Positions 6,939 to 7,181 of a stretch of DNA of 14,720 nt are shown one piece after another; the first letter of the stretch is position 1; each line of letters starts with the position of its first letter. Location of the stretch: the IMG/VR virus record IMGVR_UViG_2877285697_000005; one strand, 5' to 3'. Source of the stretch: a virus (taxonomy: Duplodnaviria; Heunggongvirae; Uroviricota; Caudoviricetes). The notes beneath the pieces were generated by a model that worked only from the letters and a program-made list of their open reading frames with translations, searched no databases and was not told the origin of the DNA. The position numbers and the translations under genes are program-made.

Positions 6939-6989
6939 TATTTGTTCGTGGTTGTTCCACGTTGTTCACTGACAGGATCGGCATATTTT
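6939..6989 (+). promoter_or_regulatory. Candidate promoter for the head/packaging operon with helically phased TTGTTC repeats
   Basis: TTGTTC at 6942, 6952 and 6962 (exact 10-bp spacing). Possible -35 TTGTTC (6962-6967) and -10 TATTTT (6984-6989) with 16-bp spacer. The promoter assignment is tentative. Confidence 0.3.
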
Positions 6990-7144
6990 ACCCGAACTGA
7001 ATCATGATTATTCTCGCCCGTGGTGCCAGGACGCTGGGGCCACTTTTCCGCCTGTTAATGTTCTCGCCAATATTCATTACCAGGCGGGAAAACGATCGGT
7101 GCGATTGCTGATTTCCTTATGAAAAACGGTTGAGTTTTTGCCGC

Positions 7145-7181
7145 GTCCTGGAGTTCCTTACTTAACCCCAGGACTTTTTTT
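7145..7181 (+). terminator. Terminator-like hairpin abutting the capsid gene start (candidate attenuator)
   Basis: GTCCTGG (7145-7151) pairs with CCAGGAC (7168-7174), 16-nt loop, followed by TTTTTTT (7175-7181) and then the capsid ATG at 7182. The only Shine-Dalgarno-like AGGA lies inside the 3-prime arm of the stem. Confidence 0.45.

Follow-up and report, generated by a model that had tools for sequence, protein, structure and literature searches.

We analysed a 14,720-nucleotide (nt) stretch of viral DNA, IMG/VR record IMGVR_UViG_2877285697_000005 (referred to throughout, in its whole length, as the window), which judging from its genes is a capsid-forming phage-inducible chromosomal island (cf-PICI) like EcCIEDL933, and concentrated on the region immediately before its major capsid gene, the first gene of the head operon. 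The leader of the capsid transcript is probably a conserved, previously undescribed folded RNA that can hide or expose the ribosome-binding site (RBS) of the capsid gene, and its control is probably exerted by a regulator of the satellite itself and not by an antiterminator from a helper phage. Our preferred reading, held tentatively and at somewhat less than an even chance, is that the head operon has its own promoter dependent on the island protein AlpA and that the leader is a two-state RNA, in which a 5'-terminal hairpin (H1) and the hairpin before the capsid gene (H3) either fold separately or pair with one another, H3 being a conditional or delayed OFF hairpin. The anatomy of the region, its conservation, the covariation and the predicted energetics are established, and are described first; features lie on the + strand unless otherwise stated.

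H3 (7145-7174), an RBS-occluding hairpin identified from the sequence and by RNAfold, has a stem of 7 base pairs (bp), five of them GC, in which GTCCTGG (7145-7151) pairs with CCAGGAC (7168-7174), and it is followed at once by a run of seven T (the U7 tract of the RNA, 7175-7181) that abuts the capsid ATG at 7182. An earlier reading of this DNA from the letters alone, the original prediction, had reported a hairpin and T-run directly adjoining the capsid start codon, and this adjacency is real. The 7-bp stem and 16-nt loop that it described are likewise present, but three further pairs form within the loop (GTT, 7153-7155, with AAC, 7164-7166), and the hairpin is better drawn with a stem of 11 positions, one of them an A.C mismatch, and a loop of 8 nt. 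It had also held that the RBS is buried, which our analysis bears out: the AGGA Shine-Dalgarno sequence (SD; 7170-7173, 8 nt before the ATG) lies inside the 3' arm of H3 and is the sole SD-like motif at a usable distance (a GGAG at 7150-7153 is 29 nt from the ATG), and its predicted probability of being unpaired is 0.003 in the full-length leader fold, the SD being paired within a conserved local hairpin. RNA folding of the hairpin region, which had been proposed as a check, gave -14.1 kcal/mol for a 61-nt stretch containing H3 (z = -2.5; 5 of 200 shuffles equally stable), whilst the 282-nt intergenic leader gave z = -4.15, none of 200 shuffles being as stable. With its GC-rich stem-loop and directly adjacent U7, H3 also has the form of an intrinsic terminator, and would serve as the terminator stem in this lineage. 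A hairpin with U7 or U8 is present in all 14 loci of the window's E. coli lineage, which we call type A; in one natural variant (L019) a C to U change keeps the stem through a G.U pair, and in another (L025) a CC to UU change makes all 11 bp of the stem perfect, which together with the 8-nt loop and T7 amounts to a textbook terminator. Our consensus terminator scan did not call H3 because it accepts only loops of 3-8 nt and perfect stems. Just upstream, a mini-open reading frame of four codons, ATGAAAAACGGTTGA (7119-7133), resembles the ATGAAAAAA capsid starts of relatives, and its A-run can pair with the U7 tract; it may be a remnant of an older capsid start, the present start and the H3 of this lineage having been added downstream.

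About 240 loci encoding capsid relatives of 64-100% identity were collected, and nearly all of them share a common upstream layout, in which an intrinsic terminator is accompanied by the box TTTGTAAAT(T/A)(A/T)T, by three direct repeats phased at 10 bp and by a -10-like TANNNT. The window's three-hairpin leader (H1, H2 and H3) is carried by about 140 of the ~240. H1 (7020-7043), defined by folding and covariation, is a 5'-terminal hairpin of the form GUGGU-G-CCAG-GACG-CUGG-G-GCCAC, whose loop is GACG in all three-hairpin loci but two (GGCG). All nine of its pairs are supported: the inner stem shows compensatory changes between CCAG/CUGG, CUCA/UGAG and CUCC/GGAG, and the outer stem between GUGGC/GCCAC, AUGGC/GCCAU and GUGAC/GUCAC. 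H2 (7044-7091) is a long covarying hairpin, hypervariable in sequence and loop among islands with its structure kept, the eight basal pairs exhibiting GC, UA, CG and AU alternatives. RNAalifold recovered H1 and the base of H2 from 54 unique leaders, with 12 of 17 pairs changed on both sides. The minimum-free-energy structures of type A leaders, and of these only, contain a small extra hairpin (7094-7113). In the three-hairpin leaders H3 ends 4-8 nt before the ATG and holds a purine-rich SD in its 3' arm, and of 77 unique pre-ATG segments, which differ in sequence, 96% have most of positions -14 to -7 paired. The U7/U8 run follows H3 only in type A, the others (about 125 leaders) reading CACUCC, ...GGAAACCACUCCAUG or similar at this point; since the U-run is limited to type A, RBS occlusion is the conserved role of the hairpin and termination a lineage add-on. 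The most numerous group, type B, keeps a 25-nt H1 sequence exactly in about 115 loci, directly adjoining the hypervariable H2.

No match to this RNA was found at the gathering threshold in an Rfam 15 scan of the window, nor did the leaders of types A and B give anything relevant even at E <= 10, and searches for the leader in genuine phage genomes returned matches to cf-PICI-like records only. The leader also yielded no sensor, in that no conserved leader peptide, known aptamer or T-box was found. Some leaders contain open reading frames, but these vary in frame, start and end, so no conserved upstream open reading frame could be identified, and translational coupling through a leader open reading frame was rejected on these grounds. 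Two smaller groups of relatives, in which the box, repeats and promoter are likewise kept, have unrelated structured leaders (a Gilliamella type, L006, L065, L066, L069 and L088; and L049, L056, L058 and L223). In these, too, a 5'-proximal segment is complementary to the region just before the start codon, for example CAUGUAGGU with ACCUACAUG.

The evidence for two states comes from a second partner for the 5' arm of H3. The nine nucleotides CCAGGACGC (7026-7034), which span the 5' strand of the H1 inner stem, the loop and one further base, are 100% complementary to GCGUCCUGG (7143-7151), the 5' arm of H3 plus 2 nt, which contains an invariant CGUC and can pair either with 7168-7174 (OFF) or, as a perfect 9-bp helix, with 7026-7034 (ON). 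As in an attenuator, the alternative helix uses the 5' arm of the terminator itself, making CCAGGACGC a candidate anti-terminator/anti-sequestor strand. The same two elements are complementary in type B (AGACGUGAG with UUCACGUCU) and type C (GACGGGAG with UUCCCGUC), and the core, GACG in H1 and CGUC in the H3 5' arm, is invariant apart from the two GGCG loop variants, even though the capsids concerned are only 64-75% identical to that of the window. Flanking positions co-vary: the base 3' of GACG, its H1 partner and the base 5' of CGUC read U/A/A, G/C/C and C/G/G in about 115, 12 and 14 loci, respectively, and two independent A to G changes in the loop keep a G.U pair. In an alignment of 18 distinct H1/H3 combinations 95.1% of cells pair, compared to 21-61% in slid controls, three pairs are changed on both sides, and none of 500 shuffles reaches the covariation score. 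Predicted stability follows the same order, H1 < duplex < H1+H3, in all three types (H1, H1:H3 duplex and H1+H3, respectively: -15.6, -22.9 and -28.6 kcal/mol in type A; -11.4, -17.2 and -23.8 in type B; -11.8, -17.8 and -21.8 in type C). In nascent prefixes in which the H3 3' arm is not yet made, the probability of the long-range helix is 0.94-0.98 for type A and 0.71-0.87 for types B, B2 and C; it falls to ~0 once this arm is present, and in full-length type A RNA the long-range (ON) conformer lies 6 kcal/mol above the minimum. The ON pairing is thus expected first on nascent RNA, because transcription yields H1 at the outset and then the 5' arm of H3, which appears some 17 nt ahead of the 3' arm. 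Separately, nine-mers with at most one mismatch to CCAGGACGC are over-represented in the window (11 versus 3.2 expected; 0 of 200 shuffles), for example at 731, 4992, 6161, 10453, 13124 and 13186; these lie mostly in coding regions and may reflect CCWGG or codon bias instead of function.

In the mechanism we propose, AlpA would switch on a weak sigma70 promoter through three phased TGTTC repeats, and H1 would be the first structure to fold. The emerging 5' arm of H3 would then invade H1, with the GACG loop as a toehold, to give an anti-terminator/anti-sequestor helix; in this ON state GCGUCCUGG would pair with CCAGGACGC, H3 would be blocked, RNA polymerase would pass the U-tract and the SD would be open to the earliest ribosomes. 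The 3' arm of H3, aided by the GUU/AAC pairs, would subsequently displace the long-range helix, and ribosome-free RNA would close into H1+H3 (OFF) with the SD buried and, in type A, possible intrinsic termination. H3 would thereby confine capsid synthesis to fresh, ribosome-loaded transcripts, and a factor that bound H1 at its almost unchanging GACG loop could tip the balance between ON and OFF. Such a mechanism would account for the conservation of the RBS hairpin, for a near-invariant loop with covarying flanks and for a capsid gene placed behind a terminator without an antiterminator protein. The original prediction had expected capsid expression to be gated by antitermination or structural remodelling; remodelling is favoured by the conserved alternative pairing, but a helper antiterminator finds no support. 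A wider claim is that the leader represents an undescribed family of self-contained RNA switches which fold sequentially (H1, then the H1:H3 helix, then H1+H3) and so time or license capsid translation, as well as read-through in E. coli O157-type islands, that the GACG loop is perhaps read by a factor, and that with the AlpA-bound array the leader sets the number of tail-less capsids, including helper-independent leakage; taken as a whole we regard this as possible but doubtful.

The DNA upstream of the leader suggests where the transcript begins. An intrinsic terminator of the upstream small gene, AGCCGGAGCAATCCGGCT plus a T-run (6901-6923; 7-bp stem with five GC pairs, 4-nt loop), insulates the capsid leader from transcription arriving from upstream. 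It is followed by the conserved box, TTTGTAAATTAT (6930-6941), a putative binding site which in most related islands, with every leader type, has zero or one mismatch to TTTGTAAAT, and of which the window has one good copy. Downstream of the direct repeats lies a weak sigma70-type promoter (6987-7014; -35 TTTACC at 6987-6992, a 16-nt spacer, -10 TATTCT at 7009-7014), whose TA...T is invariant in the 54 unique leaders and fixed 5 nt ahead of H1. It matches 8 of 12 consensus positions, which falls under the cut-off of our consensus scan, and such weakness is typical of activator dependence. We infer a start at ~7020, the first base of H1, and a leader of ~160 nt; the candidate promoter of the original prediction, about 190 nt upstream, was approximately right, the conserved promoter being that at 6987-7014. 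In relatives the terminator stands either ahead of the box, as in the window, or between the repeats and the -10, and by strict criteria 79 of 129 unique upstream regions have a terminator before or inside the promoter. Several islands have a divergent gene immediately upstream of the box, so that their head operon is not fed by read-through and the start must lie here. An alternative promoter, TTGTTC-16-TATTTT with a start near 6996, was rejected, as it is not conserved and in most relatives the terminator lies downstream of its position. The -10 region also takes part in an 11-nt perfect inverted repeat, 7006-7016 (GATTATTCTCG) with 7186-7196 (CGAGAATAATC; capsid codons 2-5), of chance probability ~0.004 in 298 nt, the second copy of which places a TATTCT on the minus strand pointing back into the leader. 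A functional pairing of these two segments was rejected, because close type A relatives break it without compensation (T7008G in five loci; CCG to CAG in L002) and because 7006-7016 would be absent from transcripts starting at 7020.

Between the box and the promoter are three direct TGTTC repeats in 10-bp phase (6943-6967; -77 to -53 of the predicted start), which their motif distribution marks as a probable AlpA array. TGTTC-N5-TGTTC arrays are enriched in the window (10 matches versus 1.7 expected; 0 of 200 shuffles) and in a closely related island with chromosomal flanks (L001; 7 versus 0.14 expected), where they occur at both att-proximal ends, in the int-alpA interval and at the capsid promoter (coordinates including 1849-1985, 3298-3331 and 16567-16630). 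In the latter island the arrays adjoin two GGTGTAGTCA repeats just upstream of int and two identical ones at the other end. The window likewise has four TTGTTC/TTGTTG repeats between int and alpA (1267-1300, minus strand), a second putative AlpA site, and a right-end (attR-side) array of TGTGT/TGTTC/TGTTT followed by two GGTGTAGTCA repeats at 14488-14497 and 14500-14509 (14445-14509 in all). The GGTGTAGTCA repeats look like integrase arm-type sites, and pairs of such sites flanked by phased short repeats are the classic excisionase layout, as in lambda Xis, P2 Cox and P4 Vis; PICI AlpA is an excisionase-type winged helix-turn-helix protein and a distant relative of Vis. Together the arrays look like the small regulon of one DNA-binding protein. 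As the capsid-promoter repeats recur beside the arm-type sites of the att ends and upstream of alpA, AlpA is the likely activator, binding at -77 to -53. Repeat type and protein are also linked across islands, TGTTC-type repeats going with AlpA at least 58% identical to that of the window and TTTAC- or CGTCC-type repeats with AlpA of at most 51% identity, with few exceptions. The integrase as alternative binder would be compatible with this linkage, but its arm sites appear to be the GGTGTAGTCA repeats. Published work makes AlpA the activator of the PICI cycle and its genes and, in the island EcCICFT073, of its own promoter (PMC6092414). Two other candidates for a universal regulator were ruled out, namely PerC, which is replaced by a ProQ/FinO protein or absent in other islands, and the small gene at 6588-6890, which is missing in close relatives. 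Some islands have phased arrays away from the capsid promoter, at least eight copies of CTGTTGAATG in L140 (792-926, minus strand), at least six TGTTC-type repeats in 10-bp phase in L150 (3079-3133) and GTTACGTGTCAT repeats in L154 (2254-2288); these may be replication iterons or further regulator sites.

Several points weigh against the preferred reading. The start site, the binding of AlpA, termination as an actual event and the order of folding in the cell are deduced, and the folding energies leave out pseudoknots, kinetics and proteins. The covariation between H1 and H3 is suggestive, not conclusive, because it involves three clades only and roughly two independent events; targeted degenerate-pattern scans of IMG/VR for more H1/H3 variants gave, among the matches listed, only random GC-rich ones, and the helices designated H3 in types A and B do not occupy homologous positions. 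At -14 kcal/mol and with a break in its stem, the hairpin may be an inefficient terminator. The RNA device is dispensable for the operon as such, because ~20 relatives in which box, repeats and promoter are retained make do with a short (~35-nt), unstructured, SD-less leader (among them L043-L048, L053, L055, L057, L059, L060 and L062). The assignment of the repeats to AlpA is weakened by L014-like islands, which carry TGTTC only at the capsid promoter and whose AlpA is 58% identical to that of the window. One alternative is a static leader, in which the sole effect of H1 and H2 is to stabilise the 5' end of the mRNA, H3 damps translation initiation to a fixed degree, H3 with U7 is in this lineage a leaky constitutive terminator that reduces basal expression of the capsid, and the H1/H3 complementarity has no function. 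Short-leader relatives do manage without any of the hairpins, the covariation is confined to those three clades, the full-length minimum-free-energy fold holds H1, H2 and H3 together with a probability of the ON pairing of about 0, and the probability of meeting a 9-nt inverted repeat by chance anywhere in 298 nt is about 0.13. However, the complementarity recurs in each type at the same pair of elements, preserved by two-sided changes, GACG (two GGCG aside) and CGUC stay invariant across leaders with capsids this divergent, the energy ladder recurs in three types, and a permanently buried SD is hard to square with the high yield of the capsid. We therefore consider a static leader unlikely, whilst giving it serious weight.

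A switch operated in trans is less probable again, and we think it improbable: an island or host protein or RNA would read the GACG loop and either lock H1 (termination and occlusion) or open it (expression), like Com of phage Mu on mom. The exact conservation of the 25-nt type B H1 beside a hypervariable H2 speaks for such a factor, and some islands (L014) encode a ProQ/FinO-domain RNA-binding protein just upstream; but no universally present candidate was found, the 6588-6890 gene being missing in the close relatives L018, L021 and L022, PerC being swapped or lost as described, and no Com-like zinc-finger protein occurring among the open reading frames tested against Pfam. The original prediction had likened the region to the lambda late promoter PR' and terminator tR', with a helper-phage late antiterminator or activator releasing polymerase stopped at H3/U7. 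The geometry is indeed fitting (a promoter, a ~160-nt leader and a hairpin whose U7 adjoins the first late gene), PICIs are induced by helper phages (PMC6092414), and the EDL933 experiments co-induced resident lambdoid prophages, yet we judge this account very improbable. About 125 related leaders have no U-run, the leader is confined to cf-PICI-like records, and the operator repeats are of the kind that the island itself carries at att and alpA. No match to a Q family was obtained among the island open reading frames tested against Pfam, and inspection by eye found no -10-like pause element in the first transcribed bases of the window, GUGGUGCCAGG, nor any TAnnnT-like element in the GUGGUGCC or GUGGCACU with which all leader types begin, the conserved sites being the upstream direct repeats. 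DNA-filled, tail-less cf-PICI capsids have moreover been published as forming without helper phage (bioRxiv 10.1101/2025.02.11.637232), a report that concerns a Klebsiella island, the leader of which may be of another type, whilst the EDL933 experiments included induced resident prophages. Nor can the island AlpA be read as a Q-like antiterminator, since the shared name is a coincidence: the P. aeruginosa antiterminator AlpA has at least 142 residues, eight helices and a Q21-like fold and forms a ring at the exit channel (PMC9371919), whereas PICI AlpA is an unrelated 62-residue PF05930 protein, and a PDB sequence search with the window AlpA matched only the 73-residue AlpA-family chain 8c3t and not the antiterminator. 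Two further readings are more remote still. The terminated ~160-nt leader (7020-7181) could be a structured small RNA acting in trans, like lambda 6S RNA or StxS from PR', which would agree with its strong structure (z = -4.15) and the terminator-like hairpin at its end, but the terminator is lineage-specific, no Rfam match appears even at E <= 10 and no target was identified. Equally remote, CCAGGACGC and GCGTCCTGG could act at the DNA level as inverted operator half-sites for a looping repressor, these arms being a perfect inverted repeat 108 bp apart; H1, H2 and H3 however show hairpin-type covariation, and the complete change of H2 sequence with its stem kept is expected of RNA, not of protein-binding sites. 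The two-state leader with its own AlpA-dependent promoter accordingly remains our preferred reading.

The remainder of the window is that of a compact island in which all large open reading frames are on the + strand. A tyrosine integrase gene, int (1-1218), is followed by the gene for the 62-residue AlpA-family protein (1573-1761; PF05930 match), a D5-type primase (3559-5391), an SSB and a PerC-family protein, these last two lying between the primase and a small gene without assigned function (6588-6890). The major capsid gene (7182-8339; HK97 fold, 385 residues, Pfam PF05065) then opens the head operon, in the order capsid, prohead protease, portal, head closure, connector, HNH, TerS and TerL. 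With int, alpA and pri-rep, its own capsid-to-TerL set, no tail or lysis genes by Pfam and a size of about 10-15 kb, the island agrees with the definition of cf-PICIs and with the gene content of EcCIEDL933 (bioRxiv 10.1101/2022.09.08.507074). Over the leader region (6880-7260) the window shows 100% identity to E. coli O157:H7 chromosomes, in which a 14.8-kb island of the same gene content interrupts tqsA (RefSeq annotation), and these 381 nt are matched in 423 of 5426 complete E. coli genomes, in 360 of them over at least 80% of the length. The island OI-51/CP-933C encodes RgdR (PMC3378721); the 6588-6890 gene was ruled out as RgdR, as its residues 20-22 lack an RGD motif, and RgdR was not found in the window.

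The 6588-6890 gene is bracketed by two 27-nt terminator copies, 93% identical, at 6542-6568 and 6896-6922, and where it is missing (L018, L021 and L022) the PerC terminator abuts the TTTGTAAAT box; for these reasons it looks like a cassette gained or lost via terminator recombination. Between the capsid stop (8339) and the protease start (8379) there is a strong hairpin, GAAGGGGCTTAAAAGCCCCTTT (8349-8370; 9-bp stem, 4-nt loop), which could be a partial terminator or a 3' stabiliser raising capsid output over the downstream genes. In L001 (4299-5005, corresponding to ~2200-2900 of the window) a gene for an Icd-like cell-division inhibitor lies beside an opposed YlcI/YnfO gene, as in immunity regions of the P1/P4 type; an Rfam scan of the window found no C4/CI antisense RNA family. 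In some E. coli cf-PICIs the position of PerC, immediately ahead of the capsid leader, is occupied by the ProQ/FinO-family gene mentioned above (L014, 6197-6739).

cf-PICIs build their own capsids and release DNA-filled, tail-less heads that borrow tails from other phages, and the literature on them, as far as it is accessible, mentions no promoter or terminator of the head operon. The control region described here comprises an island-specific repeat array that also occurs at the att sites and near alpA, probably coupling excision and capsid expression through one protein, and a conserved RNA leader, predicted to be bistable, before the capsid gene. If the preferred reading is true, it would explain how a highly expressed structural gene can lie behind a buried RBS and a terminator without a helper antiterminator, and would offer a handle for tuning or blocking the output of transducing particles from pathogenic E. 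coli, Klebsiella and their relatives.

The leader shares with known terminator/antiterminator leaders a terminator 5' arm that can pair upstream instead, an alternative helix that is predicted to form first and two mutually exclusive structures. Unlike attenuators and riboswitch platforms, however, it has no sensing module that we could find, and since the hairpin of most relatives lacks the U-run it can, unlike transcription attenuators, act there only on translation. In lambda late control, transcripts from PR' end as the 194-nt 6S RNA at tR' unless Q intervenes. The cf-PICI region has a like arrangement of promoter, leader of about 160-190 nt and hairpin with U-run directly before the first late structural gene, but differs in that no Q gene, Q-binding element or sigma-dependent pause signal was found, in that the upstream sites at -77 to -53 are direct repeats shared with att, and in that the U-run is not conserved; for Q itself we follow the mechanism summarised in PMC9371919. 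The cf-PICI hairpin also buries a late-gene SD, and an upstream hairpin in the same leader would decide its opening, which is the arrangement of phage Mu mom. There a translation-inhibition structure is opened by Com, whereas the cf-PICI encodes no Com-like zinc-finger protein and its upstream hairpin is itself complementary to the sequestering arm. The MS2 maturation-gene leader and hok mRNA are controlled by folding kinetics, their ribosome site being open only in a transient co-transcriptional fold and closed at equilibrium, as folding predicts for the cf-PICI leader, although the topology is different: in the cf-PICI the open state is a long-range helix and the closed state two local hairpins. 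Satellite P4 provides a precedent for a phage satellite that decides termination by complementarity inside its own leader transcript, seqB of the CI RNA pairing with seqA and seqC to cause premature termination in P4 immunity; the P4 RNA, however, is processed, acts in trans and represses early genes, whereas the cf-PICI pairing takes place in cis ahead of the capsid operon and should, by prediction, promote expression. Similarly, P2 Cox and P4 Vis are excisionase-type regulators that also control late promoters, and AlpA would join them as a small winged helix-turn-helix protein with phased direct repeats near att sites and promoters, its binding to TGTTC being suggested by the distribution of the motif.

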